Below, piece by piece: positions 37,570-64,000 of a stretch of 64,000 bases of DNA. The stretch is taken from assembly GCF_964204645.1 (NCBI RefSeq), contig NC_134029.1, forward strand, positions 14,314,850 through 14,378,849. Reading direction: 5' to 3'. Within the stretch, counting starts at the first letter, position 1, and the number at the start of each line of letters is the position of its first letter. Below the pieces are notes generated by a model, which worked only from the letters and a program-made list of their open reading frames with translations, made no database searches and had not been told where the DNA came from. A program made the translations under genes and the position numbers. Source of the stretch: Tubulanus polymorphus. Its lineage: Eukaryota > Animalia > Nemertea.

Positions 37570-37589
37570 TTATTTAGCAAAAAAAATTA

Positions 37590-38012: not shown

Positions 38013-38037
38013 TTATTTAGCAAAAAAAATTATGTAT

Positions 38038-38259: not shown

Positions 38260-38262
38260 TTA

Positions 38263-38601: not shown

Positions 38602-38617
38602 TTATATATCAAAAAAA

Positions 38618-39378: not shown

Positions 39379-39395
39379 TTATTTTACATATTTTC

Positions 39396-39737: not shown

Positions 39738-39765
39738 TTATTATACACATTTTTATTGAAATTGA

Positions 39766-40956: not shown

Positions 40957-41302
40957 TTTAATACTATATTTTTTATTAAAATTGATTTTAGAAGTTCAAT
41001 GATTTAAATGTTATTCATTTATGTGAATATTTTAAGAGTAATAGGGATAATGGGCTTTCGGGTTAAAGGTTGAACGGGCGGGTGAGTAAAAATGAAAAAC
41101 ATAAAAATAATAACAATTTCTACTTGAATTAGGAGTGAAACTCATAAAATGAAAAATAAATTCGAGCGTGTGAGAATTTATTTTTCATTTTTATGAGTTT
41201 TGCGAGTAATTCAAGTAGAAATTGTTATTATTTTTATGTTTTTCATTTTTTACGAGCTCGACCGTTCGACCTTTGATCCGAAAGCCCATTATCCCTATTA
41301 CT
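40843..41302. repeat. Mav2 right TIR; fold-back palindrome 41037-41302
   Basis: Reverse complement of 25782-26241. Confidence 0.95.
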
Positions 41303-41308: not shown

Positions 41309-43915
41309 CCTGGAAAACAGTTGCGTGAAAAACCAACAATAATCCATGACAAGAATAAATGCCTTCGTCTTGAGATGTCAAGAGACCACCCTTTGCTCGT
41401 TCAACATTCGCGAATTCATACACAGGCATTGAGGGCAAATGGAGACATATCAATCATTTTATCGAAATCCAACCCCAAACAACCATCTGTCTCCGATATT
41501 ATAGCCACCGAAAAATATGTATCGGGTTATGCATGCAAAGGCAAGGAGCCAACAGGTGCCACGATTGATTTGTTCAACGACATGATAAACGTAGCAGACG
41601 ATAAGGAAGGTATTACTGCTAAATCCATTACCACAAAGTTACTCATGCAAACCGTAAAACGAGACATGGAAGTTGAGGCATCATATGAAATATCATCGCT
41701 ACCACTATATCGTTGCAGTCACATATTTAAGATGTCAGCTTATCTGGGACAAGAAAATTAGAAAAAACTGGTGTGGCTGCAACAAAATCAACTCCACTTG
41801 ATAGATATCTCGAGAGACCAATAAAGGACAAATCTTCATGGTATAATTACATTTGTAAGAGCGGCAAAGTTCCTGTTATTTCAGCCACTCCATTATAAGC
41901 AACTTGGTCACTTTCTGATGACTACAGTAGAACAATGTTGATAATGCACAGGCCAAACTGGCGTAAACTTACTGACATCAAGAGCACGGAACAATTATGG
42001 ATAAATAAATTCGAAGAGTTTTTGCAGTCAACGGAATGTCCTAATTTTGTAAAAGCGGATGTTGAACGAGCAAAGTCAAAGATATCGCACATCGAAAATG
42101 ACGATCTGACAGTCATTCACAGGAGCAGCCTGATTGGATCGAATTGGTACGGCCAACAAATGATTTTATCGAGGTCATATCTGATTTTGAGCACAATGAT
42201 GGGGGACCCGATTTTGATTGGAGTGTATCACATTTTGATTACCCAGAAGACCTAGGGATAGATTGGCTATCTGAATTGAATAATGAAGCCGAGATGGATG
42301 AACAAGAATTACAGTTACCTGATATTGAATTTCAATCTCTAAATGCAGAACAACGGTTTGCCTTTGCACTTGTGATGCACACGCTATTCGATTTCAAGGA
42401 AAATCCTGAGATTGAGCCACTACGTCTTATTGTTGCTGGAACTGGAAAAACTCATTTGATTAACAGCATCGTCAAAGGAACCCGCATTTTATTTAGAACC
42501 AATAAATCTGTTCAAGTTATATGCCCGACCGGTAATAGCGCCAATCTGATATCAGGTGTAACCTGCCACAGCTTCCTAAAAATACCAACAGGAAAAGAAA
42601 AGAGCAAGGAGTAGGTAGCACCTGACGGCATTAATGGCCGACAACTGCAAACAAATTGCGATGGTCTACACGTTCTTCTCGTAGATGAAAGGTCCCTCAT
42701 TGGTTGCACAAACTTAGGCTGGATGGAATTTATGTGTTGGTATGGTGTCAATTGTGAGAAAGATACAGACAAACCATGGGGAGGATTACCTGTAGTAGTG
42801 TTTCTTGGTGATGACATACAACTTCCACCAGTGTGTGACACGCCGGTATACATGACGCATGCAAAGTCTCCTGCCGCTCCTGATTGGTGTGGAGAGATTT
42901 CAACACAGCAGTCACTCTCACCCAGATCATGCGACAGGACGAGTCACAAAAAACGCTGAAAGAAACCTTGACATCTTTACGTGATTATACCTTGTTGTCA
43001 GCCCAGGCACAATGGCTCCAATCATTCCAGTGGAACCAACTTCGTAGAAAAAATGGTTTGATTGAAAGAATGACGGAATCTGGATTGTTCGTTTTTCCAA
43101 CACATGACGAAGAATCTAGTCATAATCGCAACGAAATTTTGAAGAAGAGTGCTGAACACCCCATTGCAAAAATCAGTGCTGTCATGCATGGGCCCCATGC
43201 ATATAGTGATAAACCAGAGAAGGCTGGCGGTCTCTTAAAAACCCTCTACATTTGCCAGGACGCCAGAAGAAGTCAAGCTCGTATGTAACCTTAACGTTAA
43301 ATATGGCCTATTCAATGGATCAGTGGGTATGGTCAAGAACATTATTTACCTCAATGGACGAAAACCAGATAGTAATGCGCAACCAGACGTTGTAAGACGT
43401 TGGTAGAATTCACAAAGTACACAGGGCCACCATTCGTCGCAGATCATCCAAAAATAGTACCCATTACTCCCGTAGAAAGACGAATTGACTGTTTTGCAAA
43501 GGCTGTAAAAGAAAGCAAATTTCTTTGCGGTTAGGTTGGGGCACAACCATACACAAATGCCAAGGTATGACGATTGGTGCTAACGAAGTAAATAGATATA
43601 TCATCATAAACCCAGGAACAAGGTCATTTGAAAGCAGGAATCCTGGTGCATTATTTGTAGCTCTACCGAGAGCCAAGTCAGCAGGCGATGATAATCGTGA
43701 CCCGGATTTTGCTTGGCACCCGAGTGTTCTTGTTAATGAAGATCGCCTGTGTCATAAGGTGGAAACGCCTACTACCAGAGCCAGATTTAGAGAGATTGAG
43801 CGAATCAAAGCCATAACCTTACGGACAATTGAACTCTACCATCAATTAAGAACATGAAACATATTTTGACCAGTTGTGTGAGGATATGAATCAGACGGGG
43901 TATAACGAAGAGTAA
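41309..43915 (+). pseudogene. Helitron polyprotein 3' part: Rep catalytic tyrosines and PIF1-family helicase
   Basis: RANGDISII..KYVSGYACK (YxxxY); LNAEQ..AGTGKT; PTGNSA; VDE; WGGLPVVVFLGDDIQLPPV; LTQIMRQ; TIHKCQGMT; FVAL.RA. Confidence 0.88.
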
Positions 43916-45554: not shown

Positions 45555-48095
45555 AGATTATTTAGTCTTGAGGGGTAGTTGTTAGCCCAGACGATATTAC
45601 AGTATTGTATGTGAGGTAATGCTAATGATTGATATATTGTTTTTAAGGTGTAATTAGGAAGTTTATGTTTTAGTTTGCTAAGGATAAAAAGTATTCTGCG
45701 AAATGTAATTTCAACTTGATGTATGTGGTGTTCCCATGTGATTTTGTCGTCAATTATAACGCCTTAAAATTTGGCCGCTGTCACCTTTTTTATTGCTTCA
45801 TCATCAATGTATAGTTTAATGGTCTTCGTTATTTTAATTCTTCCCGAGAATAATAAAAGGTTGGTCTTATCGATATTCAAAGATAGTCTATTTGCGGAGA
45901 GCCACTTGCTTACTAATTTTAATTCATAGTTCATTTTGGTTTCGAGGGTTTTGGGACATCTATTACTGTGCATTAAACTTGTGTCGTCTGCAAAAGGATG
46001 GAGTCTAGGATTTTCGATGATTCTGTGATATCATTGAAATATATTAAAAATAAAAGTGGCCCTAGGATTTATCCTTGTGGTATTCCCGTTTTAATGGCTT
46101 TGAAATCCGATAATGCTGAGTTAATGTTAGTTAGTTGATACCTATCTGTTAGATAACTCCAAAACCATGCATTTGTGATACCTCTGATCCCATAATGATT
46201 TAATTTAAACAATAAAATGGAATGGTCTATTGTATCCGAATGATCTATTGTATCAAAGGCCTTTTTAAGATCAAGTAGAATAAGCGCTGTCATTTTTCCA
46301 TCTTGCAGGTTTTTAGTGATTTTGTCTAGAAATGTGATCAATGCTAAATCTGTAGAATACTTTTTTCGAAAGGCAAATTGTTTGTCACAGAGAATCGCAT
46401 GTTTAGTACAGAAGTTTGATAGTCGATTATACATGAGTTTTTCTAGAATTTTGGAAATAGAGGGGAGAATTGAGAATTGGACGATAATTTTTTGCTTCGC
46501 ATGTGTCACCTGATTTAAAGATAGGTACAACTCTCGTTGAAAATATGGCATAAAGGGGCTACGATTTCTGGTATAACATATTTAATAATTTTCATGGGTA
46601 TACCATCGGTGCCAGCAGTGTTTGAGCTTTTGAGTGTTCGTACTAAATCAATAATTTCTGTCTCGACTACTGGAAAAAGATAAAAGCTTGATGGGTTTTG
46701 ATTAGGTAAAAAGTGTCAAAAATCTTCGTTGCTGTTGATGCTGTTAGCAAGTTTGGGACCAACATTAACAAAATAATTATTGAATTCTTTGGCGATATCT
46801 TGTTCATTGATTATAGATCTAAAATTGGTTTTTAGTTCCGTAATTATTGTAGATTTTTTCTTGGAACCAATGATATTGTTTATGATTTTCCAAGTGTTTT
46901 TCATATTGTTCTTCTGTTTTAAGAGATTTTGCTGGTAGTAGTTTTTCTCCGCCGTTTTAAGTATATTATTGAGTTCATTTTTGTAAGTTAGATATTTATT
47001 CTTATCCCTTTCGGATTTGCTTTTTAAGAATATCTTATATAATCTTTGTTTAGTAGAAATTGACTTTAAGAGACCGACCGTAAGCCAGGGATAATGGGGT
47101 TTACTACTGTTGACTGTGAATTTTTTCAGTGGAAAGCTAGATTCAAATAATCCGATGAAAATGTCAAGGAATACGTTATAAGCGGTTTCGCAATCGTCTT
47201 CATCCAGGACGCTAGTCCAATCTGACGCGGCTAGATTATTTTTAAAGTAAGCCATATTATTTTCGTTTATCGAACGATTAGTTATTTCATATTTTGTATT
47301 GTTCATTTTAGTTGGTATTAGCGTAAAGATAGGTAGATGGTCGGAGATATCTGAAATGATCACCCCTGAAGTGTTGTTGTTGGAGATAGAATTTGTGTAG
47401 ATATCGTCGATCAGAGTAGCTGTATAGTCAGTTATTCTTGTAGGTACATGGATGAGTGGTTTAAATCCTGTAGATATGACTCCGTTTAGAAATTTTGAGG
47501 TTTGGTGGCATTGATCACTCTTAAATAGATTTATGTTATTATCTCCTAGTAAATAGCACTCGGTTTTGCTCTTTTCAATAAGTTGGAGTATTCTCTCAAA
47601 TTCGGTATTAAAACTATCAATCTTTGTCCCTGGAGGTCTATATATCGTACCCAGTATAATATTCTTATTTTTACAGGATAATTCGATAAATGAAAATTCT
47701 AATTCATACGTATCATTGGAGATTAGATCCAATCGTAATTTGAAATTTACATCTTTTTTAATATAAAAACCGACACCACCACCGACAGAGTAATCTCTGC
47801 TTGAAAATACATTATTATACGCATGGTGGCTGTACAGGGTGTCATTATCATTTTCAGGTTTCGTCCAAGTCTCAGAGACCGCTATTATCGTAGGATATGA
47901 ATTCAGGGAATCTAGTAAATGAGAGATTTTATCGAAATTAGCTGTTAAGCTTCTACAGTAAATGTGTACTAGACTTAAGGGAGACGAGCAGTTTAAAAGA
48001 GAGTTGAAAGTTTCTACATCGTAGTATTTGCACGGATTATCATCCGTTATAAATTCATCTATAAAATTAAGCATTAATTTGTAGTTAGTTAACAA
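45555..48095 (-). pseudogene. LINE ORF2: APE endonuclease + reverse transcriptase, frameshifted
   Basis: AVSETW, GGGVGFY, IYRPP, SDHLPI; ISKILEK, DLKKAFDTIDH, GIPQG, FADDT (~45985). Confidence 0.92.
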
Positions 48096-48128
48096 TGAAT
48101 TGAATTAACAATTACGAATAGATTGAGT

Positions 48129-49485
48129 TCAATTTTTAGTTTTCTTTTCACTCGGCTTCTCTGCAGAAGTTGGGGTCTCTGATAGTGACCTTGTCTTCCG
48201 TTTGGATCTCGGGGTCTCAAAAACGGGCAGGTCGTTGTATTCATCAGATGATCTCGCAATGTTGTTGATGAGGAGATCTTTGCCCTGTTTACTGAGATGA
48301 ATTCCTGACATATCGGATGGGATATAGAGTGAATCTTGGATTAGTCCATTGGGCATGAAAGATTGGTCATGGCTTATGAAGTATATGTTTTGCATGTCAC
48401 AAAGCCTTTTCATGTACGAATAAGCTGATCAAGCAGTGTCATTGAAATCTTTTGTTTTGCTGACGTTACTTCTGCCATTAGCTCTCTTAGGCAATATCCC
48501 AGATAGATGGATAGTAGCGTTTGGATAATGCTCACAGGCTTTTGCAATTGTTGTCGACAAGTTCATTTTTATTGTGTCAGGGTCATGTTTGTTTTTGGAG
48601 ACGTCGTTGGTTCCCAGGTGGAGAATAACATTTTTCGGCGGATCTGGGGACATATATTCAGTAGCTGCGCGCTCAAGGAGATTGTCGATGTCCTCGCTAG
48701 TTGCCCCGGGGCGACAGATGGAAAGTCGGGGGGACCGCTATTTCCCGTAGGTTAGAATCACCTATTAGGACGTTCGAGACCGGCTTTTCGATCGTGTTAG
48801 CCGGTACCGGTTCACTGGTCAGCTCTGGTGCGTCATCCGGTGAATTGTCGTCAGGTTTATTCGGTTGTAGCGTGTTAGATTGAGGACAATCTCTTTGCAT
48901 GTGATCGGGCGCGCCACATTTAAAACACTTTTTCTGCCTCGGTGGTCTCTGATTACACCTGAACGACGGGTGATCACTACTCTTGCAGAATGTACAACTT
49001 TTGGTTTGATCATCGTAGAAAATTCTGACATTATAATCACCGATTTTAGTATAATTAGGGATAGTTCCAGTTTTTTTACTTAACTGGAGATAACGAGTTC
49101 CAGTAAAAATATCGGTGTCCTTGATGACTCCGCGTTTAATTGAACCATGAACATAATTTCCAAACTTGGATATAAATGTTATAATGGTTTGGTCGGACAT
49201 TTCAATCGGGGCATCCACGATCTTGAAATTAATCAGTTGAAGATTTGCATCTTGTAGTGTTACCGAAAACCCCAGAATTTCTATGAGGTGGCTTGCTAAC
49301 AGATTTCTCGTCTCTTCATCTTTCGCAGTTATGAAACATTTGTTTTCAGTAATCTGGATTGCATGAATTTTACTCACGTTGATTCTATTTTTTAATCCGT
49401 TAATTATATCCTGATGGCTGAGTTTCTTACGCACACTAAATGACAGCGACATATCGCGATTGAGTTTCGATTCATTCATGATCAC
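48129..49485 (-). pseudogene. LINE ORF1: RRM-like region + two CCHC knuckles + SGNH esterase, frameshifted
   Basis: CTFCKSSDHPSFRC, CFKCGAPDHMQRDC; LIGDSNLR, HLGTND, SGIHLSKQG. Confidence 0.85.
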
Positions 49486-50552
49486 TATTACACGATAATT
49501 AATCCTGAGGGAGGTGATACATCGATTAATTCAGAGCTCGAAATTAAATCGACCTGCGGTCAGCCGCCATATTGGAATTTTTTTTCACCAGGACATATGT
49601 GGCGTGAGCCCTACCCCACTTATTTTGCTGAGCAAAGAAATTTTTCAAGCCACTATATCCATATAAAAAACTAGCTAGCTGGCTTTACCAAATCTTCATC
49701 ACCAAATGAATTAATTTATTTCTAAAAAAATTGGTGTGGCCTTAGCCTATATTGCAAGTCCGCTCAGAATACACCTCATTGGCATTGAATCTTTTTTCCA
49801 AATTTTCAGGGGGAGACTCCCCAGCACTCGATGTGAAATGACTTCCCCATCCTGTTGCTTTCATTTGGGCCTCCCAAAAAAGTTCAAAAATCAGAAAGTA
49901 ATCTTAACCAGCTTTTCCTTTGCAGGAGACTTGACACCCTCACACACCCGTCATTATATGACTCTTGGATTTGGCTAGTCAGTAACCTGTCTGTGGTTTA
50001 GTCTCACAATCGGATATTTTCACAAACCACATATATGTATAAGGCATCCGATTATAAAAGGCTTACCACCAACGATTAGGTAACTAACTAGGGTTTGGCA
50101 TGATTTGGCGTAGTGGTAGGTGCCCCTGAAAATCACAAGTTTGGTGTTATAGTTAAGTGCCTTTTATTGCTGCGATTTGCCATGGAAAGTACCCTTCTCC
50201 ATAATTATTAGTGAGTGCCGTTATACAATCCGGAACCCACTCGATCGAGATAATACATTAATAGGCCAGGGCCCTCTGTTCAGCTGCTGCCGCTGGAATC
50301 CCTGGATCCAAACATTGTTTGCAAGAAGAATTCTCATTTGGAGCACCACACACATGTCGTCAAGCATTAAGCATCACTGACCGTACACCGAATGAGACGT
50401 GTCCTATAACTGGTGGCTTCCTTTCGACCAAAAAAGCACGTGGTGAGGTGAGGAGTATAAGGGGAGTCGGGTGAAATCATAGCAGTCTTTACGTCATGAT
50501 TAAACCTCATGCTTCAAATTCATATATAACCGTAATTAAATTTATTTAATTG

Positions 50553-51118
50553 AGTAGTATACAAAATAGCGGTTCTGGCGCAGCCCGACCCCGGTTCTGG
50601 CGCAGCCCATCCTTACCCCGGTATACCGTGTACCCTCTCAAAGCTTTATCTCCACCTAAATGCCCTAAGAAGACAACCCCTGTGGACCGCGGTTCTGGCG
50701 CAGCCCGACCCCGGTTCTGGCGCAGCCCATCCTTACCCCGCGGTACCATGTACCCCCTCAAAGCTTTTTCTCCGCCTAAATACCCTAAGAATACGGACCA
50801 TGGAAAACACGCCAAGGGGCCGGCAAACCCCCTCCGGCCCCTATAAACCCCCTCCGGCCCCTTTAAACCAACCGCTATAATGCACCTACAACAAAGTGTT
50901 ATTTACATAGATATTTACAGTATATACAAGTATGTGAAACGCTCTGACCTGGAATTCACCTCTAAGCTGACGCTATCAGCGGTGCGCTGCGACCTGATTG
51001 TCACTGATTGCGAAATAGCCTAGAAAGTTCTATGCTGACGCAGAAGCCGGCAAACAACCGAGACATCGGCAGGCAACCAGAGTCATGTCCCTTGGACATG
51101 GCCAGGCCCGGCCAACAC
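50553..51118. repeat. Mav3 left TIR with two ~120 bp tandem units
   Basis: Reverse complement of 62348-62979 apart from repeat copy number. Confidence 0.95.
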
Positions 51119-51163
51119 ACCAGGTGAAGCGCGTCTCGTGAGAGTCCTGGTTCACTCACCAAG

Positions 51164-53435
51164 GTGGATATAGATTCTGCGTGGTCAGAAATGGACACAG
51201 ATCTGATCTATCAAAACCTGGTGAGTGACATTAAAGCCGGGTTGCCGAAAACCCTGAAACAGCGGAAATGTGAATTACGGAAGACGCTGTTCAAGAATGA
51301 AGCCAGCTCGAAAGAATTCTTCGGCCTAGTGAGAAAAATCAGCAAACTCAACAAGGCAAATCGGTTTTTTACAACAGCCAAGCAGATTATTACGGGTTCC
51401 CCGAGCAATCAAACGCAGGAGGATGCATTTCCGACTAAACGACGGGTGAAGGAATACTTCACGGACCTGTATTCTAGTAAGCAGACCGGTCCTATTCCTA
51501 AGCCACCCGTCAAGAACGTTGCGTTCCCGTTCGATATGTCACCGATAACCGCAGCTGAAATCGAAAAAGCCATGAAGAGCAGCAACCCAAAGTCCGCTCC
51601 AGATCTAGACAGGATCAAATACGGACATCTCCGTCAGCACACCCATCGACTCGCGCGATTTTACAACGACATACTAGATACGGGAAGGTCACCTTCGAAA
51701 ATCTCGGCGTGGTGCACCAGTATTGTGACGCTTCTATTCAAGAAAGGGGACCGCCGGGATCCTGCTAACTATCGTCCGATTGCGGTTACAAGCGTGATCT
51801 CAAGGCTCCTTCATCGGATAATGGCGAAACGCATAGAACGCCACGTCATTAGGAACGGATTCATCGACACTGCCGTACAAAAAGGATTCGTGTCGGGCCT
51901 TCACGGGACACTGGAACATTCTGAATTATTAGAGACTAAAATCATCGAAGCCGAAAAAACTAAAAATGACTCATTTGTGACTTTATTTGACCTTAAAAAT
52001 GCATTCGGTTCAATCGAACACGAACTGGTAAGTGAAACGCTATCTGTCATTGGAATTCCCGCAAGCTGGTATAGGTACCTAACGGCGCTGTATTCTCAAA
52101 TTTCTAGCAAATTCAAAGGTCCTTGGGGCACGGTCGATATCCCCTACAAACGAGGGGTCTTTCAGGGTTGCCCTCTTAGCCCCCTAATTTTCATCCTGTG
52201 CGTAGAACCCCTCGTTAGAATACTGTCAACCGGGACATCCCTAGCCTATGCAGATGACACAACGCTGGAAACAAAATCGGCAAAAGCCCACTTAGATATA
52301 ACGTACGCGTTTAACAAAAAAGCCAAGGAAATGAACCTTGAACTCAGGCCGGACAAATGCGTTTCCCTGAGCGTTAGACGCGGACGAATTGAGCCATTCA
52401 AAAACGAGATAGAGGGCAAAGACACCGCGACCCTCACCGATTTGGACAGAATAACGTATCTAGGCAAAATTTTCAGTCCCAAGGGACAGGAAGGGGTGGG
52501 TGAAATTCTCCTCACAAAATTCAGGCAACGACTCGCAAACATAGATAACGCCGATATACAAAGCGGGACAAAGGTTCATATCGCTATAGACTATATGCTG
52601 AGAGCTGATTACCATGACCTCATGATCAACGACCTGTCTGATAATTGCTTGCAGTTAATCGACAGTGTCTTTGTAAACACGCTACACAAATGCGGTCACC
52701 GTCGATTGCTCACTTTTCAAGTACCGTCCACCGTATACCACTGGCTTCATGCATTGAAGGTCTACTTCCTTATCACTTCTCCCGACGAAAAAATCGTTGA
52801 AGTAGCCATCTCCAAATTCGAAAACAGCCATTATCTCGATCTCGCTTTCGAATCCCTCAACCATAAAAACTCGAAGGCGTTCATAAAACGCCACTACTTA
52901 GGAATATTCGCGCACGCCACCCCCGACCCAGAAAAATTCCCCTGTAGCTCTAAGGCGTTCGACGTATTCGACATCTATCCGGAGCATATTCCCGAAGTGT
53001 ATACAAACGGCTCGTGCCTGAGAAACGAAGCAGACGAGGCTCGTGCGGTCTACGGCGTCTACTGGGGACCAGACAGCCTTAAACACCTGTGGCGTCGTCT
53101 ATCCTACCAACAACAGAGGTGAATTAACCGCGGTCGTCGTGGCTCTCAATCAGGCCATCCAGCTTGGTATTAACTCCTTGCAAATTTTCACCGACTCGAA
53201 ATTCGTTATAAACGGTATCACCGATTGGATCAAGACGTGGAAAGCCAGGTGCTGGAAAAACGTCAAAAACCGCGATCTCTGGACACAACTGGATGGTCTG
53301 AATAACCGAGTCTCCGTATCTTTCAAATACGTCAGGGGTCACCAGGGGGTACACGGGAATGAGATGGCGGACCAACTAGCTAAATCGGGAGCAGCTCTCA
53401 ATGGTAGTAATCCGGGGGTGACGTGTCTCTGTTAA
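51164..53435 (+). pseudogene. Non-LTR-type (R2/NeSL/Hero-like) reverse transcriptase fused to RNase H; one frameshift near 53077
   Basis: SAPDLD.I.Y, LLFKKGD..NYRPIAV, QKGF..GTLEH, DLKNAFGSI.H, GVFQGCPLSP, AYADD, YLG. RNase H VYT(N)GS, TNNRGEL, FTDSKFV, VRGHQGVHGNEMADQLA. Confidence 0.92.
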
Positions 53436-53444
53436 ACTCTAACG

Positions 53445-54056
53445 TTAACCTCCATCCAGCTTTTTTATGATGGAAGCCCTGGCCTGCTCCCTGCCCTGCC
53501 TGATGAGGTCCTTTTTTGTAGCCTCGTCGATCGTGATCGACCCGTGTTTTTTACGAGCCTGTGACTTGATATCCTGCTTCAAAGTCTGATAGTTCCTCTG
53601 TTCAGCTAGAATCAGCTTGAACTCGTCATCCGAAACAACTCCATCACTTATTGCCCTCGATACAAGACCTGACACGGTGCTTAGTTTGGAAGAGGCTAAC
53701 ACTCGAATTTCGTCGTGCTTTTTAGCCTTGATCAGAAGCTTCCGACCGACTATCTTCCCAGACACGCCTAAGACGCCTAGGACGGTCGCAACGGGGATGG
53801 TGATTATGTTTGTAAGCACGCCAGCGGCTCCCGTAGCCGCGACTGCTATGCTAGCCGTCACGAAGGCCGCGTCAAATCCATCTATGGTGTTTACCGCCCT
53901 TTTATATTTCTTGTAGAGCGCAGCGCGGGATTGTCCCTCGGACTCTAAAATTTTCTGGACTTCGCATATTTTCTGCAGTCGGAAGTTCGACGCATCTTCG
54001 GTTGGAGCACTAGGCTCAGTTGGAACCATTGGGTAAAGTTTAGTGTCGCTATCCAT
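53445..54056 (-). CDS. Polinton-associated protein with hydrophobic hairpin (203 aa)
   Basis: Intact ORF; FRL..I..L..E...R..LYKKYKR, hydrophobic centre, KAKKHDEI..LA.SKL. Confidence 0.7.
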   Translation of the reverse strand: MDSDTKLYPMVPTEPSAPTEDASNFRLQKICEVQKILESEGQSRAALYKKYKRAVNTIDGFDAAFVTASIAVAATGAAGVLTNIITIPVATVLGVLGVSGKIVGRKLLIKAKKHDEIRVLASSKLSTVSGLVSRAISDGVVSDDEFKLILAEQRNYQTLKQDIKSQARKKHGSITIDEATKKDLIRQGREQARASIIKKLDGG

Positions 54057-54057
54057 G

Positions 54058-54486
54058 CTATATACTATGCGGGAAAATGTCGAGCTCGATGAGGAGTGAA
54101 GCTATCGTAGCTATTGCTCGAGTAGCGGGCGATCTCGACGACTTGAAATTGATGACGTCGCCCTCGGCCAATTCGACTGGTGGGGAGAACGTTTTGACCG
54201 CGGCTTGGAAGACTCCTTTACCTTGGGGTTTGATCGGGCCCTGTAAAAGCCGAGCCTCTTTCGTGATTTCTCCTTTTTCCACCCTGTTGACGGTCAACAC
54301 TACTGTGGTATTAGTTGTCAATTCGCCACCGGAAAGGCCCATTTTTAGCACCCATCGCGACCCATCACCGTATGAAAATTCGTAAGAGCCCTCACCAAGG
54401 GGTCCTTTTTCCTCGGCCCAAACGGTTATCACAGGTTTTGTGGTTGACTGTGTTTTCCCTAATCCCCTGTACAAGTTCATCTCCAT
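54058..54486 (-). CDS. Hypothetical beta-rich viral protein
   Basis: ORF tightly packed in the minus-strand gene run. Confidence 0.55.
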   Translation of the reverse strand: MEMNLYRGLGKTQSTTKPVITVWAEEKGPLGEGSYEFSYGDGSRWVLKMGLSGGELTTNTTVVLTVNRVEKGEITKEARLLQGPIKPQGKGVFQAAVKTFSPPVELAEGDVINFKSSRSPATRAIATIASLLIELDIFPHSI

Positions 54487-55201
54487 TCTAATGCGAGCAA
54501 AATTTGGAGCGGTTCCTGGAATCGAATCTCCTCCATGTCCCGATTGAAAACCTTGACCACTACGTCGGCGAAGCCGCCTTCCTTAATTGGTATCAGTACC
54601 CCGTAAACGTACTCGAATGAGTCGCCGTATTGACCTGCTTTCGGATGTAAAATGGCGATCAGGTTCGAGGGCACCCCGTTTAGGAAGTTTCTAGATTCGT
54701 CAACGAGATTGCACGTACGCGGTATTCCGTATGCCTGGTAAACCTACATTCTTTCGTACCCCTTACGCTAACCTCTTTACCTTCGACGTTTGGGTAATAT
54801 CCTTCCGGGACTCCCAACAGATCGGTGATAGAGCCTCTGAAGAGCCCTCGGTACGGTTTTTTGACGTTGAGTTCGATGCGCCCCCTCGCCTCCACGTAGG
54901 CTATGTTAATGAAGCCCGGTTTGTGACCGTTTCGGGTTATGACTCGCTGAATTTCGTCGTTCAAACTCTCAACCGTGTAAAGTCCATTCCTGATAATCAA
55001 GTTGAACACTTTTTGTTGGTGCTCGTCCACCCTTTCTCCGGTCATGTAGCGAAACCTGTGGTTGTTCAGTTTGTCGGAAACGTTGAAGTAAGCAAGAGGA
55101 ATGACAGCCCGTCTTAAGGCCACAGTTTTGAAGCCACCCGTGTCGAGATGCGTTTTTAGACGCACGGTCGGATCCTTACCGTAACAGTGGATGACTAACA
55201 T
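54477..55201 (-). pseudogene. Minor capsid protein (penton), frameshifted
   Basis: YFNVS..IRNGLYTVESLNDEI..DLLG pattern as in the Mav1/2 penton; continues in ORF 54477..54674. Confidence 0.7.
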
Positions 55202-55212
55202 CCTTCCTATAT

Positions 55213-56337
55213 CTAACGCGAGAATATCTTGCTCAGGACTTGGAAAGACAGACCGACTGCAGCGATAAACAACAACACCAAGTGCTCGGACACGAATCCG
55301 ACTGCTTCTCCGGCTTTCCTCAACAGGAAGCTAACCACCGTTCCGATCATTCCCGGCAACGCGGCAGCTCCTTTCCCTGCGAGATATTTAAGAAACGCCG
55401 CGAACTTTTTCAGGGCTTGTCGAATCCTGGACTTGGGTTCTTTTCCCGGTCCAACCGGCGGACTGGGTGTGACTACGCTTTTGAGCCCGTTCGCGATTGC
55501 GAGCCCGATGCTCGTGATAGTCATAACGACGGCCGTGACAACGCTCACCAACGTAATCCCTTCCTGTTTGAACAACTCCCGGATCTTTACGCCGAGGGAC
55601 CGATTATCTTCGTTCTTCAGAAGCCTCTTCAACCTCTCGATCTGAGAAGTCTCCCCCTGCCGTAGAGCCTCGTAGGTCCGCCTGTATATTGCTTCCTGAG
55701 CTTCGAACCTTTCTACTTCGTCGTCCCAGTATCGGATGTCTTGTTCGGACACCGCGTCATCGCGCTCTTTCTGAGCCTTTTCTAGTTCTCGTTGGGCCCA
55801 TTCTACGTTTACAGCTGCTGACTTAATTTTGCTGGACGTAGAAACCAAAGTAGTAGCTACCCCCCGGAGTTCACGTCTGTCTTCTGGTCTCGGCGGAGCC
55901 CTGTCGTCATTGACGATGTCCTCTATTTCCTGCTGCAAACTCAACTCGTTATCCACCGACAAGCGATCCACGATAGATGGTTCCAACGGGTCTCGTTCCA
56001 TTCTCACCGGTCTGTCCGGGCCCAGAGCATGGAAAAACTCAGAGCCCCCTTTCGCTTTCGAGATGGTACTATGCGCGAGTACTTGACCGCTCCTACCGGT
56101 AAGTTTCACCCGAACTGGATCACCGTTCAGTTCCGTCTGAAAGAACCAGGTATCGTCTTGTTTTCGTAGTTGCAGGCGCATCAGGGCTCGCTCCATGTCG
56201 TCCAGGTTACCGCCGAATTTACCGAGCAGCGAGTCGATGATGCCGTCTCCCAGGTTTTCCATGGGAATGAGCTCGCCTACGGCGTCATCTTGAGGCTCCA
56301 CGTCCCAGTCCATCGGATCAACGTCAAATTCCGCCAT
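55213..56337 (-). CDS. Acidic/coiled-coil membrane-associated viral protein (374 aa)
   Basis: Clear homology to the Mav1/2 protein (RRELRG, LFKQEGITLVSV, KGAAALPG). Confidence 0.82.
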   Translation of the reverse strand: MAEFDVDPMDWDVEPQDDAVGELIPMENLGDGIIDSLLGKFGGNLDDMERALMRLQLRKQDDTWFFQTELNGDPVRVKLTGRSGQVLAHSTISKAKGGSEFFHALGPDRPVRMERDPLEPSIVDRLSVDNELSLQQEIEDIVNDDRAPPRPEDRRELRGVATTLVSTSSKIKSAAVNVEWAQRELEKAQKERDDAVSEQDIRYWDDEVERFEAQEAIYRRTYEALRQGETSQIERLKRLLKNEDNRSLGVKIRELFKQEGITLVSVVTAVVMTITSIGLAIANGLKSVVTPSPPVGPGKEPKSRIRQALKKFAAFLKYLAGKGAAALPGMIGTVVSFLLRKAGEAVGFVSEHLVLLFIAAVGLSFQVLSKIFSR

Positions 56338-56828
56338 CGTCTATAATTAAGCCAGGAATTTCTGCAAGAATCGGAAACATCGAACTCGTCCATTTGTTTT
56401 TGGATCCACTCCTCGTACACTTCCCACAAATTCCAGTTTTGTGCCAAAGCAAATTTCGACACTGATTCTTTCCCTAACTTACGTTCCGGCTTTCCATGTA
56501 GCTCGAGGATTCGGTTTAAGAAGAATCCGTAGGAAAGGAGGTTTTTCCGACGAGGGAACTTTTCGAGGAAGAGTTGATAGACGTCGGCGAAGCAATATCT
56601 GATCATCGCGCATGTAGGAATGTCGAGAAACCCACCGTCCAAACCGCGATTTATGTGGTCTTCCAAGTAGGTTCGATAGTCGTAATTCGCCGGAGGGATG
56701 TGGACTTGTTTCGGTTTCGGAACCTTTTTGATCTGCAACCGAAGAGGAGGGTTTACGTAGTCTTCGAGTTCTCTCTCGAGCCTTTCGAGATCAAACTCCT
56801 TAGGCAATATACCATAGGGGTCGTCCAT
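56277..56828 (-). CDS. Possible VLTF3 (poxvirus A2-like late transcription factor) C-terminal domain protein
   Basis: FPRRKNLLSYGFFLNRILELHG resembles the RKNFLSY.YVL....ELL motif of NCLDV VLTF3, recalled from memory. Confidence 0.5.
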   Translation of the reverse strand: MDDPYGILPKEFDLERLERELEDYVNPPLRLQIKKVPKPKQVHIPPANYDYRTYLEDHINRGLDGGFLDIPTCAMIRYCFADVYQLFLEKFPRRKNLLSYGFFLNRILELHGKPERKLGKESVSKFALAQNWNLWEVYEEWIQKQMDEFDVSDSCRNSWLNYRRWRNLTLIRWTGTWSLKMTP

Positions 56829-56831
56829 AAC

Positions 56832-57251
56832 TTACAGATATTTGTACGCGATGACGCCGGTCAGAATTACACTGCCTAATATAAAGGCGTACTCACTGTT
56901 CAATTGGGCGTCTGAAGGGGAATAGAAATCGCCTAGCACCGGCCGCTGGCTCAAAGATAGTTTGTCGTTCCTGGTACTGTTGTAAAGCCTAAGGGCCTCA
57001 TCGACGTCCGAAAAGTCGGATTTTGTCTGCATCTCTTTTTGCAGCTCCCTGTTGAGGTAGTCCAGTGTCTTTTGCCGTTTCTCGTTCCAGGTCACCATTG
57101 CCGCGTTCAATCGCTCCATGGCCTTGTCGTGCCTCTCTCGTTCTTGGGCAGCTCCGGAGTCGCCTTTTACCGCTCTATAGATTGCTTGTCCTCCGGTAAA
57201 TGCCACAGCGTTCGCTATGGCGCCGCCGATGATAACCGCTGCAGTAGCCAT
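56832..57251 (-). CDS. Conserved membrane-associated viral protein (139 aa)
   Basis: Homolog of 37590..38012. Confidence 0.8.
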   Translation of the reverse strand: MATAAVIIGGAIANAVAFTGGQAIYRAVKGDSGAAQERERHDKAMERLNAAMVTWNEKRQKTLDYLNRELQKEMQTKSDFSDVDEALRLYNSTRNDKLSLSQRPVLGDFYSPSDAQLNSEYAFILGSVILTGVIAYKYL

Positions 57252-57253
57252 GA

Positions 57254-57493
57254 TTAGGTCCCTATATTTGGGGGCAGAATTTTCGACTTCTCCATGTAAT
57301 CCTTGGAGATGGTTGCTAATGAAACCGCAACCGTGAGTTTCATAGCTTCGGAAAGGTCAGCCTTGGAGGGATCACCCACATCGAAGCGTAGCATTTTCTT
57401 CCCGAGCATCGCGTACCCTACGGTCAGTCCGCTTAGAACGGCCGAGTGATAAAGTACGTTTGCGATTGTTCGATAGTCTGGATTCGTTGCCAT
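57254..57493 (-). CDS. Small hydrophobic viral protein (79 aa)
   Basis: Homolog of 38038..38259 (LY..A.LS..TVGY.M..KK..KLT.AV.L..DY.EK.K..PP). Confidence 0.8.
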   Translation of the reverse strand: MATNPDYRTIANVLYHSAVLSGLTVGYAMLGKKMLRFDVGDPSKADLSEAMKLTVAVSLATISKDYMEKSKILPPNIGT

Positions 57494-57853
57494 CGTGCTA
57501 TATCTATCTACAGAAAATTTAGGTCATCTCCACAAGGCGACAAGTTAAAGGTTCGGGTGTTGGTTCCGTGTTTTCTTCGGGTTTCGGGGTTTGGTTTAGC
57601 GCCATTCTCTGATAGTATAGAGCTCCGAGGCCCACTAACAACCCGCCTATCGCGATCCACATTTGCAGGTGTTTTGACTGGGCTCTGTTTTTGTCGTCGG
57701 AACCGACAATCGGGCAGCCGTTTTCTTCGAGGCTCGCTGCTGCCTACTAATTTCGGCAAGCTTTTTGCCCCATGCGACTCGACCAGGGGACTTTTGTTTA
57801 TGCGGGTTAGTCGTCACTTGTTCCACTTGTTTAAGTTCCATCCCTATATGCAA
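57490..57853 (-). pseudogene. Basic protein (KSPGRVAWGKKLAE), frameshifted
   Basis: Position and motif parallel 29052..29438. Confidence 0.55.
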
Positions 57854-57891
57854 GAGAGGAAAATACGACTTACGGGAAAGTGGACAAGTTA

Positions 57892-58381
57892 CTAATCGGC
57901 AAGTGGACTAGTTACTTGCGGACAAGTGGACAAGTCACTTTCCTCAGAATCTGCCATATTCTTCCCGGTGATTACCGCCACGTTCGCGATTGCGAGTATG
58001 GGAGTCTTCAGAATCCTACCCAGATGGCCGAGCTGGTTTTTCATCTCGGCGGTGATAACAAAGTTTTCAGTCAACTCCTTGTTTAGCTGTTCTGCGTCTA
58101 CGTTAGGTCTGAACCACTTGCAGAGCTTGGAATAACCGTAGAGTATGCTGTTGATCAGACTGTCGGAATCCGCGGTTTTCGTACTCCGTCCACGCCCGTT
58201 CGAGCGCTTTCGAGTTCATCTTCTTAAGTTGACCTTCGGATTTCTTGATACCTATTTTTGCAAGCAACCCGCTCTGAGAAAGCCCGACAAGTAGCTGCCT
58301 GCGCCCTTCCGACTCGTCGTCTTCGGGCGATTCTACATCCAACCCAATGTCACTCAGTAGTTCGTCGTAGACTTCGTCCAT
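57892..58381 (-). pseudogene. Homolog of the 194-200 aa Mav1/2 protein, frameshifted
   Basis: ORFs 58103..58381 and 57892..58074 align in pattern with 28475..29059. Confidence 0.6.
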
Positions 58382-58408
58382 GTTCGCTATATGTTAGTCG
58401 TCCAAAAT

Positions 58409-59023
58409 TTAGAATACCCCGTAGGCGAATGGATACTCGAGGCGCATGACGAGACGGGCCCGATTCCTAGCAGAGAGATCTGCGATCACACGTTCCCTTT
58501 TGGTTTTCGGGACGATGTTATATTCACGCAGAGCATCCTTTAAAGCATCCTCGTCTTTTTGGTGGTACAGGACTAACATTCTCAGGTTTTCTAGGAAATC
58601 TTTCAAAACGGCGTAGTATTTTTGAGTGAGCACCCACACTGAGATATTCAGATGACGGCCCGAGAACGCGAGTTTCGTCAATTCGGACGACTTGGTTTTA
58701 GTATCCCTCAAGTTGGCACAGTCGTCTATAAGAAACAGAGTTTGACAATGAGGATCGCCGTATACTTTGGTGCACGTGGAAAGCAAACCGTCTAGGTCGT
58801 TTAACACCGAACCCGGGTTCATGACGAAGATATTGGGGTCCTTCATCACAAACGATCTATCGTAGGTGGTGTTCTCGAGGAAAGTCGGGCAGAAAATCAC
58901 TATATTGTGGAATTTGCCGCGATAGACAGATTGTAGGAGGTCGAGGACGTAGTGCGTTTTTCCGCAGTTCGTTTGCCCCGACACAATCATGTTGAACGGG
59001 GGCTGTAACCAAAGCCTATCCAT
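58409..59023 (-). CDS. A32/FtsK-like packaging ATPase
   Basis: GQTNCGKT, LFLIDD, SGRHLN, TQKY. Confidence 0.93.
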   Translation of the reverse strand: MDRLWLQPPFNMIVSGQTNCGKTHYVLDLLQSVYRGKFHNIVIFCPTFLENTTYDRSFVMKDPNIFVMNPGSVLNDLDGLLSTCTKVYGDPHCQTLFLIDDCANLRDTKTKSSELTKLAFSGRHLNISVWVLTQKYYAVLKDFLENLRMLVLYHQKDEDALKDALREYNIVPKTKRERVIADLSARNRARLVMRLEYPFAYGVF

Positions 59024-59035
59024 CTCCGCTATACA

Positions 59036-60284
59036 TTAGAACAGAATCGCCTTTAATTGGTTGTTCTGGATGTTTACTTGGGCGTCGGCTACGACGTAAA
59101 TGAACATCGTGTACTCCGTTGTGCTGGTAAGGGTGATGGCTAACTGAACGCCGTCCTTTGTGTTGACCAACCTTAGACCAGATCCGTGAAGCGAGTTGTC
59201 GTCTGTGCTTCTGAGATCGATCCACAATGCGTATTTGTCGTCGACGAAGAACGAGAACTCGTCTATGTGCGACTCGTCGGTTTCTTTGGCCGATTCTGGC
59301 ATCAGAAATCTTCTGCACTCTTCCCATTGTTGGTAAGGTTTCAGTCCTTGCTTGTACACTTTGTGAGATAAACCTTCGATCGTGACATCGACGTTCTTGA
59401 TGTTAGGGTTCTGAAACGAGGTGGATTCGGAATCGTACTGCCCGTTGTCAAACTCTTCTTGAAAGAATATCAACAGGCCCTTCATCGACCTTCGGGGAAC
59501 GTTAACGTTTACGTTCAGAATTGTCGAGGTTCCCGTGGATTGACTCCTGAAGAACGTGACGTAGTCGTACAAGAAGCTTACCCCGGCGGACAGGTCGGCT
59601 TCGATCCGTCTGGCGAGCTCCGCCGAATGCACGGTGTCGTATTCGAGGGCTATATTTTTTCACGGAGTATCCCCATGCCTCCGCACTCCCGTTTACAGTG
59701 AACTTGATTTCGTTGAAAGTGATCTCCCTAACAAAGTCCTCGTTGAATGCGAACGGATAGAAAGGACCGTGGTCCGTGTACAGTTCGAAATCAATGGGTA
59801 TGGCGTACCTGTTCTTAAACACCGACTTGATCATCGTTTCCTTGGTGTTGGTTTTCAAGGCGTCTTCTGCATCCGATCTGAGTTTCCTTAAGTTCTCGTT
59901 GCCGATTCCTTCCAGAATCATGTTACTTCGCCTTTTGTCCGTAAGCCACAGATCTTTGTAGGTCTGGAAGACGAAGCTGTAGTTCAAATCCGATAAGATT
60001 TCACCACCCAGTTTGTCAACGATTCTGGCCATTAGGTTCCTCGAAATGTTGTTCACGAAGAAGTTATTAGCCGGACCCTCTTTGCTGAGGTCGAACGTGA
60101 GTTTCAAGCTTCCGGGTACCAGCAGCGTGTTCACCTGCAGTTTTGGTATCCTTACGTAAAGGGTTTCCCCCGGTGACACGGACGAAGGGTTGTGGGTAAT
60201 AACATCGTGGTGTCGATCCGCCTTGACACCTAGCGGTGTTCGAATCTGTCTCGAAGGGTTCAAGTGTTTACCGTATGCAGACAT
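59036..60284 (-). pseudogene. Major capsid protein, one frameshift in a homopolymer run (~59655)
   Basis: ORFs 59502..60329 and 59036..59632 together align end to end with 32738..33985. Confidence 0.88.
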
Positions 60285-60325
60285 AGCAGCTATACTGTAA
60301 GCCAGAAAAAACTCGCTTTTCCGTC

Positions 60326-60616
60326 TCATGGTAATTCTGACCAGCCACCTTGCTCGATAACCCAGTATGCGAGATTGTCGTTGAAGAACTCCGTCGTTCT
60401 AAACGCGATCTCTTCGACGTAATCGAGGTTATCGGTGACTCGGAAGAAATGCTTAGCCAGATAGCTAGCGAATGCGATTAACGTGACTATTCGACCCCAG
60501 TTTACGCGGTTGTCGGTGAACATCTCCTTCCAAATCGCTTCCAGATTTATTTCCTCCCAGGCGAAGCCGGACAGAGCCATGAACTGCAAACTGTATCGTT
60601 CAATGCCTGCGACCAC
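60326..60616 (-). CDS. Bcl-2 family domain (BH1-BH2), fused in frame to the pPolB stump
   Basis: EMFTDNRVNWGRIVTLIAFA (BH1, NWGR) and LAYWVIEQGGW (BH2). Confidence 0.88.
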   Translation of the reverse strand: MVAGIERYSLQFMALSGFAWEEINLEAIWKEMFTDNRVNWGRIVTLIAFASYLAKHFFRVTDNLDYVEEIAFRTTEFFNDNLAYWVIEQGGWSELP

Positions 60617-62266
60617 GCGGAGGTTGTGAAACACGACCGGTATAGGCGTGTATTTCGCGGACAGTCGCAACTTGAGATTGCACTCGTTGTGGGCCGGGCC
60701 CCGGTAGTCACCCGTTATGTGATCGTGATCCCTGACCCGATCATCATAGAGTGGTTTGTCGCATACGTAGCAATTTTCCGCTTCCTCGAATGACGTTTGC
60801 TCCTCCCGAGTAGTTACCATGGGCGCGGGATGGGCGAGCACGCCCTTGATTTTCTCCTCTTCCCCTTGGAGGTGCTGAAGGAATACCGCCGCAGCGTCTT
60901 GGCCTCTATAAAGGACGGGTGGTTCGTGTTTACCGTCGCTTCTCACTACCACGTACGAGAACCCGCACGCCTCGTGAAGTTGAGTCTTTTCGCTACCTTT
61001 CTGGTTCGGGTTCCTTCCGGGCCCCTCGAATTTGGTTGTAATGGCTTCGAAGTCGGCATAGATGACGAACGGAATCTTGAGCTGCTTGTGATGATTGGTG
61101 AACCGCAGCACTCAATCCTCCTCCGAGGGCATACTGGTACGCATCGGACGTCCGTTGACTCCTCGACAATCTGACCTGTGCCTCTCCAGGAGATCTTCTC
61201 TGGTGAAACAATGAAGGCACCGCTCGCAGAAGTGTTTCCTCCCTTCAAACTTACTCTGGGTGAACAACAGGCGATTGAGGTCTTTGATCCATGTGTAATG
61301 CTGTTTCTCACCGCTCTCTACGAGTAGCAAGTTAATTCTAGGAATGGGGGCCGGGCCATCGCTGATATGCAGTGGGTACACGCCTTTGTCATACCCGAAC
61401 ACGTTGATTGCCAGTCCGTTTTGTCGTTCGACCATAGGAATCTGACTCAATGGTGTTGGTGAATCGATGCCTGTAAAGTCAAGCTGGTCCCAGTGATTCG
61501 CATACTTCGATGGCCTCTGGGGGTCTCTCTCTACGGGGTATTTGGAGGCCAGTATTGACCACTTAAGGCAGTGATCATCTCTATTTTTGACATTTACGAC
61601 GGCGTGTCTTCTCTTGACTGCGACGGGGAGGTCGATATAAGAACCGCCTCTCAACGGTTGATATCTGGCGATATTCAGGAATAGTTCGACTACCCTCTCT
61701 ACAGCCCATCCGGAACCTTCTCTCATATAATTCTCAATACTCTGTAAAACCCTAGCTTCAGCTTTACCCAACTCCTCATTTATGTTAGCCGCCTTCGATA
61801 GAACGTATTGCTTCGACCAGAAGGGCGGCTCGACGTGCGCATAGGTGCCGTCGTTCTTCTCCTTCCTCAACGAAACCCGCAGAGCAATGGAGAATTTTAC
61901 ACCCTTAAGGTCAATGATCTCCTCGACTAACTTCTCCCTTACATTGTTCCGCTGCTCGCGCAAGAATATCGACGGATCAGTCACATCGGTGGCTGGTCTC
62001 AAAACCCAGGCCCTCAGATAATTTTGGATAGCAAACGGGGCCCTATGAAACGCGGGTTCTGGCTCCGGTAGAATCTCATCCCAAATCGGATCATCGTCTG
62101 GTATAATGTTTTCTACCTTGTACTTGGGTTTTCTGGGGGCGGGTTTTGGCTTTCTCGGAGCAGGCGTCGGTCTGCGGGTCAACTGGTTGATGGCATCGGC
62201 ATATGTTGCGACATTAATCTGCCCGTCTCGAAGTAAATCGGTCAGACTTTTTACCGCGCTGTCCAT
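60617..62266 (-). pseudogene. pPolB N-terminal half (putative terminal protein region, vOTU-like domain, ExoI, EndoVII); palm/finger/thumb absent; one in-frame stop at 61112
   Basis: GSGW, GGSYIDLP, DDHCLKWS..HYTWI, IYADFE, RDHDHITGDYRGPAHNECN; ends at FHNLR. Confidence 0.9.
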
Positions 62267-62347
62267 TTTGCTTTCGCATATATGAGAAATATATGTCTCT
62301 AAATGGTAATTTTTGGGGGCCCCTCGTCAGAAGTCGGCACACGCCGA

Positions 62348-62979
62348 GTGTTGGCCGGGCCTGGCCATGTCCAAGGGACATGACTCTGGTTGCCTGCCGA
62401 TGTCTCGGTTGTTTGCCGGCTTCTGCGTCAGCATAGAACTTTCTAGGCTATTTCGCAATCAGTGACAATCAGGTCGCAGCGCACCGCTGATAGCGTCAGC
62501 TTAAGAGGTGAATTCCAGGTCAGAGCGTTTCACATACTTGTATATACTGTAAATATCTATGTAAATAACACTTTGTTGTAGGTGCATTATAGCGGTTGGT
62601 TTATAGGTGCCGGAGGGGGTTTGCCGGCCCCTTGGCGTGTTTTCCATGGTCCACAGGGGTTGTCTTCTTAGGGTATTTAGGTGGAGATAAAGCTTTGAGA
62701 GGGTACACGGTATACCGGGGTAAGGATGGGCTGCGCCAGAACCGGGGTCGGGCTGCGCCAGAACCGCGGTCCACAGGGGTTGTCTTCTTAGGGTATTTAG
62801 GTGGAGATAAAGCTTTGAGAGGGTACACGGTATACCGGGGTAAGGATGGGCTGCGCCAGAACCGCGGTCCACAGGGGTTGTCTTCTTAGGGTATTTAGGT
62901 GGAGATAAAGCTTTGAGAGGGTACACGGTATACCGGGGTAAGGGTGGGCTGCGCCAGAACCGCTATTATGTATACTACT
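62348..62979. repeat. Mav3 right TIR with three ~100-120 bp tandem units
   Basis: Reverse complement of 50553-51118 plus an extra unit. Confidence 0.95.
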
Positions 62980-63457
62980 TAATTGAATTTATTTATGATC
63001 CCAAAAGATGATCAAAAGCAAATGATCCGCACTATCTTTAAATTTTTATTTTAAAACAGATTTATCATCGGATTGTTTTTGCCTCATACTATGCCTTTAA
63101 AATGAAAGATCACAGTGGAAGGTAAGCACTTTAGAAGTTCATGGGATTTAATCATTTAATTTTTAAATTTTTTTGTGAGTCCGGGTGTCTATTGTTCCAA
63201 TCGACCACTCGGATAGTTGAGTTTTTGGTTAGATGCATCCTCACCCGTCGACGGATTCGAAACCAGTCAGGTGGGGCCAATCACAGAGCACGATAGCCAT
63301 ATCAACGTTCCACAATAGGAGTGCTCCGTCCGGGTTACATTATTTCTAAATTATTTCGGTATCTTGATTATCTCAAGTTCCATTATTCTCTCTCTGTAAG
63401 AACGTTATGAATATATTGTATTTCACTGTCAATGGGAGAGGGAAAAAATATGTCCGT

Positions 63458-63525
63458 GGCTGTGCGCTTCACCAAGTTTAGACTTTGACATATTAAGCGC
63501 ACAGCGAGCGCCGAAGGCGCGAGCT
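63458..63525 (+). mobile_element. Tail-to-head junction of two HINE-like elements
   Basis: 3' end ctgtgcgctt-hairpin-acata is immediately followed by 5' end ttaagcgcacag and the gcgagcgccgaaggcgcgagc hairpin. Confidence 0.6.
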
Positions 63526-64000
63526 GGAAGCTCCTTAAGTTAATCGCGCGTATGAGGCAAATTCAAATTTTCTATATTTCTCCATACCGTCCTTCTAAAA
63601 AAGTGTAGTTTACATCCGGGACACATGGGCATTGGCTAAATCGCGGCAACGAAAATGACGGTCACGGACGGACTTTCGTCGAAACTTGCGGGCCGCGTCT
63701 CGCGGGTAGTTTAAATACGTCAATGAAGGATAACAAAATGATTTTGTGTAATTTTCAGAATATTTACAAAGAATATTCACAAAATATTGTCAAAAAATGT
63801 TATTTTTAGTTCGTATTTCTCCGTAGAAACCGATTGGAAGACTGGATTCGAATCCCACAAAAAGCACAGTCCCTTAGCAACGGGTCAAATTTTTTAGAAT
63901 AACTAGCGCGCCGGTTTCACAGCATCACTAAGGGTCGAGTCCCGGAGAATGAGGCGCGCGCGCGGTCCGCGTGTTACAAAAAGACCGTCCCGTTACACAC

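Follow-up and report, generated by a model that had tools for sequence, protein, structure and literature searches.

The window analysed here is a 64,000-nucleotide stretch of the genome of the nemertean Tubulanus polymorphus (contig NC_134029.1, positions 14,314,850 to 14,378,849). At 50553-62979 of the window lies an element that carries a reverse transcriptase (RT) gene. Its termini are AGTAGT at 50553 and ACTACT running up to 62979, and both are directly flanked by TAATTG, a 6-bp target-site duplication (TSD). Homology between its two terminal inverted repeats (TIRs) stops at 51118 and 62348. The (AGT)2//(ACT)2 end motif and 6-bp TSD are given for Mavericks in PMC8097293. The features of the element are:

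50547..50552, no strand: left 6-bp TSD, identical to the hexamer at 62980-62985
50553..51118, + strand: left TIR, starting with AGTAGT, with internal tandem units and a 31-codon upstream ORF that begins at 51032
51169..51173, + strand: TATAG motif, a putative promoter, 22 nt ahead of the RT start
51191..53435, + strand: endonuclease-less non-LTR-type RT plus cellular-type RNase H1, broken in the window copy
53445..54056, - strand: conserved Maverick gene (203 aa), tail-to-tail with the RT gene; a homologue is placed alike in the metagenome contig L006
54058..57895, - strand: block of further Maverick genes
56277-56828, - strand: VLTF3-like ORF (Pfam E 0.0015, below the cut-off)
58409..59023, - strand: A32-type packaging ATPase (PF04665, E 1e-15)
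59036..60284, - strand: probable double-jelly-roll (DJR) major capsid protein, frameshifted in the window copy
60326..60616, - strand: C-terminal part of a Bcl-2 family gene, joined to pPolB by a deletion (PF00452, E 4.5e-15)
60617..62266, - strand: N-terminal part of pPolB with one internal stop, matching protein P0141 up to residue 612 of 1112
62348..62979, - strand: right TIR, ending with ACTACT
62980..62985, no strand: right 6-bp TSD

A preliminary description of this locus had placed, inside the left TIR, an endonuclease-less RT with YADD and R2-like motifs, and Pfam, motifs and alignment all agree with that assignment. The RT frame is open from 51128 to 53122 (Pfam RVT_1, E 8e-31) and contains the YADD, QKGF and DL.NAFGS motifs; this RT may be Hero-like. 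Pfam and alignment with relatives bearing a restriction-like endonuclease (RLE) detected neither APE nor RLE in the gene, and the C-terminal CCHC knuckle plus restriction-like endonuclease was likewise not found there. The RNase H match (PF00075, E 1.7e-28) carries on in another frame until the stop at 53435 and thus the frameshift, at about 53076-53109, is real. As the first RNase H catalytic position is also non-acidic in the window copy, the decay of this domain that had been reported stands. The lack of poly(A) and the close spacing of the convergent stops were also borne out by the element sequence: no A or T run of at least eight occurs anywhere in 50553-62979, and 9 bp separate the stop of the RT gene from that of the convergent gene. 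No 3' UTR, tail, repeats or GC shift was found for the RT gene (GC content 47%, against 48-54% for the other element genes).

The convergent neighbour (53445..54056) is a conserved gene without assigned function. The block at 54058..57895 includes ORFs of 374 and 139 aa that are common to two AT-rich (about 23% GC) Mavericks of a single family found elsewhere in the window, at about 4786-21634 and 25782-41302. The DJR assignment of the capsid ORF comes from its ESM Atlas neighbours at 0.96-0.97, which include DJR capsid clusters; DJR families are named on 11-15% of the members of these matches, which makes them a lead, and Pfam gave no match. The capsid ORF is 41-46% identical to the matching ORF (32741-33985) of the neighbouring Maverick, the protein of which gave a pLDDT of 31 in a single-sequence fold. 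When two Maverick integrases served as queries, and when the longer ORFs were searched with Pfam, no rve integrase was found in 50553-62979. Hence, we file the element as a Maverick-derived non-autonomous copy rather than an intact Maverick; the deleted segment could have held the integrase. Searches for a cysteine protease and a minor capsid protein gave no match in the element with query ORFs from L092 and L093 (presumably protease and penton), these queries being distant and the test a weak one. The window copy has decayed and lost an internal segment, and it belongs to a multi-copy family of Maverick type.

Both AT-rich Mavericks encode an rve integrase, with a chromodomain seen in the second (25782-41302), which looks rearranged and has little pPolB. 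They have the ATPase, the capsid protein and three other genes in common with the RT-bearing element, at 25-46% identity and in another order. Helitron fragments (OTU, DUF6570, Helitron_like_N, PIF1) lie between the Mavericks at 23072-25442 and 42102-42614. To the left of the RT-bearing element, at 46069-49530 (- strand), is a decayed ordinary LINE with a CCHC ORF1, an APE endonuclease and an RT that is unrelated to the RT of the element (weak tblastn match only).

Public sequencing runs were aligned to 50880-62340 and 62870-64000; none of those recorded as RNA contained the stretch. Runs X1-X4 may come from the source sample of the window, with X1 and X4 containing its right junction with no differences, so only X5 (raw WGS reads from a second study) was taken as independent. 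With the TIR bin and the junction bin left out, mean X5 depth was 61.0 over the five RT bins and 65.0 over the 23 other interior bins from 53561, a ratio of RT to other element genes of 0.94. The unique flank had a depth of 8.5 (eleven bins), about one seventh of that over the RT, which gives about 6-7 copies of the element, a rough estimate in that the flank may diverge in the X5 individual. Independent dispersed copies of the RT were not indicated in X5, where RT depth was not above that of the element. The TIR end at 62968 was covered by 37 reads and depth immediately outside the TIR was 1.45; hence, most TIR ends lie at other sites. At many sites fewer than half of the X5 reads agree with the window, which therefore holds a minority variant of the element. 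Contigs of X3 span the TIR-RT segment (51053-52265) and the segment from RNase H into the neighbour gene (53269-54273). Among the 24 of 151 loose-end rows seen, the sole one at an RT border was the TIR inner edge, which owes its loose end to the opposite TIR, and with this coverage rare RT-lacking or free-standing copies may exist. Length differences at the RNase H break occurred in 22 of 51 and 34 of 54 X5 reads and thus the break is not common to all copies. A 189-bp deletion inside the RT, present in seven X5 reads, belongs to some copies. The 15 RT variant sites listed fell at third (8), first (5) and second (2) codon positions, too few to use. Beyond the element, at 63457-64000, is a high-copy repeat with an X5 depth of about 600 versus 8.5 for the unique flank and many different flanks at 63494-63496.

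The polymerase at the other end of the element matches the 1112-aa P0141 at 71% identity over 164 residues and stops at residue 612, which corresponds to window position 60617. The closest pPolB relatives are 1100-1250 aa long, and those with names come from marine invertebrates. Loose ends at 60616 were seen in 35 X5 reads on the polymerase side and in 12 on the Bcl-2 side; contigs of X1-X3 agree with a break there, and one X1 contig extends 420 letters beyond it. Given that the similarity stops where the reads come loose, the stump is a deletion in the window copy, and sister copies likely carry complete pPolB genes. The stump first described is therefore present here but is not the state of the family, the deletion having joined it to the Bcl-2 fragment. 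The Bcl-2 fragment (60326-60616, - strand) lies upstream of the capsid gene; X2 and X3 contigs diverge at 60242, and some copies may differ in sequence near that position.

An ATG within the TIR (51032), separated from the RT frame by a TGA at 51125, had also been pointed out. Both positions are correct, but the role given to the ATG is not upheld. It shares its reading frame with the two polymerase ORFs, one stop intervening in each case, and is probably an incidental upstream ORF because homologues start downstream; we rejected it as the RT start since P0001 begins at a methionine equivalent to that of 51191. Ten minus-strand starts have the motif TATA[GT] 6-16 nt ahead of them, and for the RT methionine the distance is 22 nt; the motif is absent ahead of 54486 and 56828 and present ahead of two probably spurious ORFs. 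This motif was picked after viewing and has a background of 4-5% of 30-nt windows, and its position before the RT gives mild support to the RT being under the promoter type of the element. The VLTF3-like ORF together with TATA[GT] before most starts hints at element-directed late transcription.

Among the best homologues of the window protein, RT is joined to RNase H in P0001 (733 aa) and in the partial P0002 (481 aa), and P0003-P0007 (620-686 aa) have RT only. Searching 1.84 billion representatives with a profile brought in P0263 and P0293; the best 150 matches held no further RT-RNase H of this kind. An RT phylogeny had been proposed at the outset, and we built a quick IQ-TREE tree of 76 rows from the best 70 of 187 well-covered hits, with two near-duplicates dropped and LINE outgroups included. 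The window RT and nine homologues formed a 10-row endonuclease-less clade (SH-aLRT 99, P0293 and P0263 being long branches) nested among RLE-bearing RTs, with members 25-66% identical. RLE status in the tree was assigned with a regular expression, under which truncated or divergent RLE proteins are labelled 'noRLE' as well, and the clade was checked by alignment. Six of the seven RT-only members end at an acidic-YP motif, the point at which RLE relatives continue into the zinc knuckle and endonuclease and at which the three other clade members append RNase H. It follows from this common ending that endonuclease loss is old and shared rather than a truncation. The RT-only members (P0003-P0007, P0263 and P0293; 522-686 aa) are apparently whole ORFs, those of P0003-P0007 being on contigs of 2.3-3.3 kb and P0006 having an inserted pair of Cys/His motifs; they may represent a wider undescribed RT family.

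In an RNase H tree of 48 rows the window domain fell outside the 13-row clade of LINE RNases H and grouped with stand-alone RNase H1 proteins, internal support being weak. Monophyly of the RNase H domains of the window, P0001 and P0002 was not rejected (p-AU 0.6). In the AlphaFold model of the intact homologue P0001 (pLDDT 89), RT, thumb and a helical extension are joined to RNase H by a disordered linker (568-588); Foldseek with this model returned R2 proteins first and matched human RNase H1 at 42% identity. The best PDB matches of the RT are likewise R2 proteins.

Scans of viral contigs with RT, ATPase and MCP queries found no relative, and an RT alignment query gave five distant loci of 22-26% identity that fall outside the clade. 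Distant RTs of 25% identity (L001 4244-4981, L002 9993-10730, L062, L063 and L067), also outside the clade, belong to giant-virus bins and matching metagenome contigs and have no detected RLE-type C-terminus. A single metagenome scan gave 76 loci, 45 of them with an RLE-type C-terminus. The only one of the 76 with RNase H is L006, a 2116-bp contig that encodes P0002, and L006 is also the only one that matches any gene of the element, showing 369 bp of the neighbour gene. Genomic context is known for the window and L006 among the 10 clade members. Between the two, RT is 47% identical, RNase H 51% and the convergent neighbour 34-36% (36% over 112 aa, E 2e-16), the RT being conserved more than the neighbour (47% vs 34%). 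For RT, nucleotide identity at first, second and third codon positions is 59/69/37%, with 29 of 87 four-fold sites identical; for RNase H the values are 61/69/29% and 3 of 26. With third positions close to saturation, this pattern shows purifying selection on RT-RNase H. The neighbour gene has 106 homologues and is found in two viral contigs with full-length pPolB; 5 of the 38 neighbour-gene contigs of at least 10 kb match pPolB-match contigs in length. The family is a Maverick gene. The RT is absent from all 10 viral pPolB contigs retrieved, including two recovered again via the neighbour gene, and thus most Mavericks lack it. The RT depth equal to that of the other genes across several copies, the L006 synteny, the signature of purifying selection and the endonuclease-less clade together sustain the earlier view of a captured, domesticated and resident RT, and we consider it highly probable that the gene is resident in a Maverick-type lineage.

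The element shares with Mavericks/Polintons (adintoviruses; PMC8097293, PMC8502044) its ends, 6-bp TSD, TIRs, A32 ATPase, an N-terminal part of pPolB, probable DJR capsid and Bcl-2 cargo, but it differs in the resident RT-RNase H beside the TIR, and neither integrase nor protease was found in the window copy. With RLE-clade elements (R2, NeSL/Utopia, HERO, CRE, R4; PMC4640811) it has RT sequence and fold in common, although the window RT is without zinc knuckle, RLE, 3' UTR and dispersed copies. Oomycete Utopia elements have an archaeal-type RNase H upstream of the RT and retain the RLE (PMC4640811), whereas the window RNase H is C-terminal and of the His type. The accessible text of PMC4640811, which covers RLE clades and RNase H gains, mentions no endonuclease-less case, and the endonuclease-less non-LTR clade is apparently undescribed. 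RTs within DJR-capsid elements, sometimes with RNase H, have been described as Ngaro retrotransposons in virophage EMALEs (PMC8547959) and as Ty3, Copia and LINE elements in PLVs (PMC12220804, PMC10120064, bioRxiv 10.64898/2026.07.28.741278). Each of these nested retrotransposons was inserted entire, brings its own repeats, GC shift and integration enzyme and occurs in only some copies. The window RT, by contrast, consists of a bare ORF whose position is fixed; it is near-fixed in its family and syntenic across deep divergence.

LTR retrotransposon and retrovirus pol genes are alike in having an endonuclease-less RT with its own RNase H, in elements with ends marked by an rve integrase. However, the window RT is of the non-LTR type, the repeats are inverted, the capsid is probably DJR rather than Gag and no primer-binding site was identified, so that neither an LTR retrotransposon nor a pararetrovirus describes the element. 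The LINE-type RTs of large DNA viruses (for example the BFVD entries of entomopoxvirus MSV061, Bodo saltans virus and mimivirus) have the same non-LTR fold but are 17-21% identical to the window RT and belong to much larger genomes. The terms reverse transcript and reverse transcriptase are absent from the main text available for PMC8097293, PMC8502044, PMC10120064 and the bioRxiv papers 10.1101/2023.08.22.554363 and 10.64898/2026.06.19.733378; the accessible parts of PMC6431247, PMC10294476 and 10.1101/2024.03.25.586562 hold nothing on a resident RT. In the openly available main text searched, no resident RT in a Maverick was found; RT is absent from the Maverick and PLV gene lists there, and the occurrences in virophages and PLVs are described as nested retrotransposons (PMC8547959, PMC12220804, 10.64898/2026.07.28.741278).

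What the enzyme does can be put forward only tentatively. The reading we favour, possible though short of probable, is that RT-RNase H acts beside pPolB and copies transcripts of the element into DNA from existing 3' ends. In the proposed history, the zinc knuckle and endonuclease disappeared from a non-LTR RT of RLE type, a subclade then acquired an RNase H1 of cellular type behind the shortened C-terminus, and the gene came under the promoter motif of the element beside the TIR. An RT without endonuclease cannot start target-primed insertion as R2 and L1 do. With no self-started insertion available, the primers would be 3' ends made by the element (replication intermediates or linear genome ends). 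RNase H would then remove the RNA strand of the hybrid, and the single-stranded cDNA would be resolved by the TIR/pPolB machinery of the element, the outcome being RNA-templated repair or renewal of element sequence. Retention of its own RNase H would fit an enzyme active in a place that lacks host RNase H (the cytoplasm or a particle), as elements that reverse-transcribe away from the host RNase H must encode their own (PMC5348765). According to the same source, what non-LTR elements gain from an RNase H is poorly understood, and thus the compartment argument is weak.

The enzyme could instead act on host RNAs, with hybrids destroyed as a counter-defence or cDNA made for gene capture, for example of the Bcl-2 gene; the Bcl-2 fragment in the element is uninterrupted, and poxviruses are reported to capture genes through LINEs (PMC9578705, PMC9578709). 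We think this rather unlikely, as Bcl-2 homologues are present in adintoviruses for which no RT is described (PMC8502044), the element has no poly(A) scar and rare captures would be unlikely to sustain purifying selection. Slightly less plausible still is a selfish passenger, an endonuclease-less retroelement confined to Mavericks. It would bring its carrier no benefit and would spread to relatives without the RT by homing, through template switches made during strand-displacement replication. Its descent from RLE retrotransposons, the higher conservation of RT than of the neighbour, the existence of Mavericks that have the neighbour gene and lack RT, and the retrotransposons that favour virophage or PLV genomes (PMC8547959, PMC12220804) all agree with such a passenger. 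However, the described nested elements retain a recombinase or endonuclease and repeats, and the window RT has no such repeats, 3' UTR, tail or GC shift (47% vs 48-54%), is near-fixed in its family (depth ratio 0.94) and has the upstream motif of the element.

The gene might instead be a one-off truncated LINE insertion amplified passively with the element. Outside the species its context is seen in one contig and the loose-end evidence covers 24 of 151 rows, but this origin is largely refuted, and we regard it as very improbable, by the flat X5 depth, by the same neighbour in L006 at 47% RT identity, by an endonuclease-less C-terminus common to proteins 25-66% identical and by the 76 metagenome loci, in which RNase H and a Maverick gene each occur once, in the same locus, and 45 have an RLE-type C-terminus. 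Least credible of all, to the point of being nearly discarded, is that RT replaces pPolB as the replicative polymerase. This had been suggested in the preliminary description and would suit a window copy in which the catalytic half of pPolB is missing and the RT core is open. We rejected it: the break at 60616 is a copy-specific deletion that coincides with the loose ends of the 35 X5 reads, reads from most sister copies run past it, the X1 contig goes 420 letters further and the part retained is 71% identical to a 1112-aa pPolB until the break.

A bolder form of the transcript-copying reading, which we consider improbable, is that the DJR element has an RNA route out of the chromosome and so constitutes a reverse-transcribing virus lineage. 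The integrated element would leave the chromosome as a TIR-to-TIR RNA, RT-RNase H would yield single-stranded DNA, pairing of its TIRs in a panhandle would restore the ends, pPolB would amplify the product and an rve integrase would reinsert it. A comparable merger has been proposed for the origin of LTR retrotransposons. If true, a set of RT, RNase H and integrase would have been assembled independently from a non-LTR RT and a DNA element, and there would be a new answer to how integrated Mavericks are mobilised.

The conserved RT-RNase H occupies 2.2 kb of a compact capsid-encoding genome, which suggests an RNA-to-DNA step in, or riding on, a double-stranded DNA virus lineage. Two questions thereby open to testing are the way in which integrated Mavericks are mobilised and whether an element that relies on an integrase can take in a non-LTR RT that has exchanged its endonuclease for RNase H.
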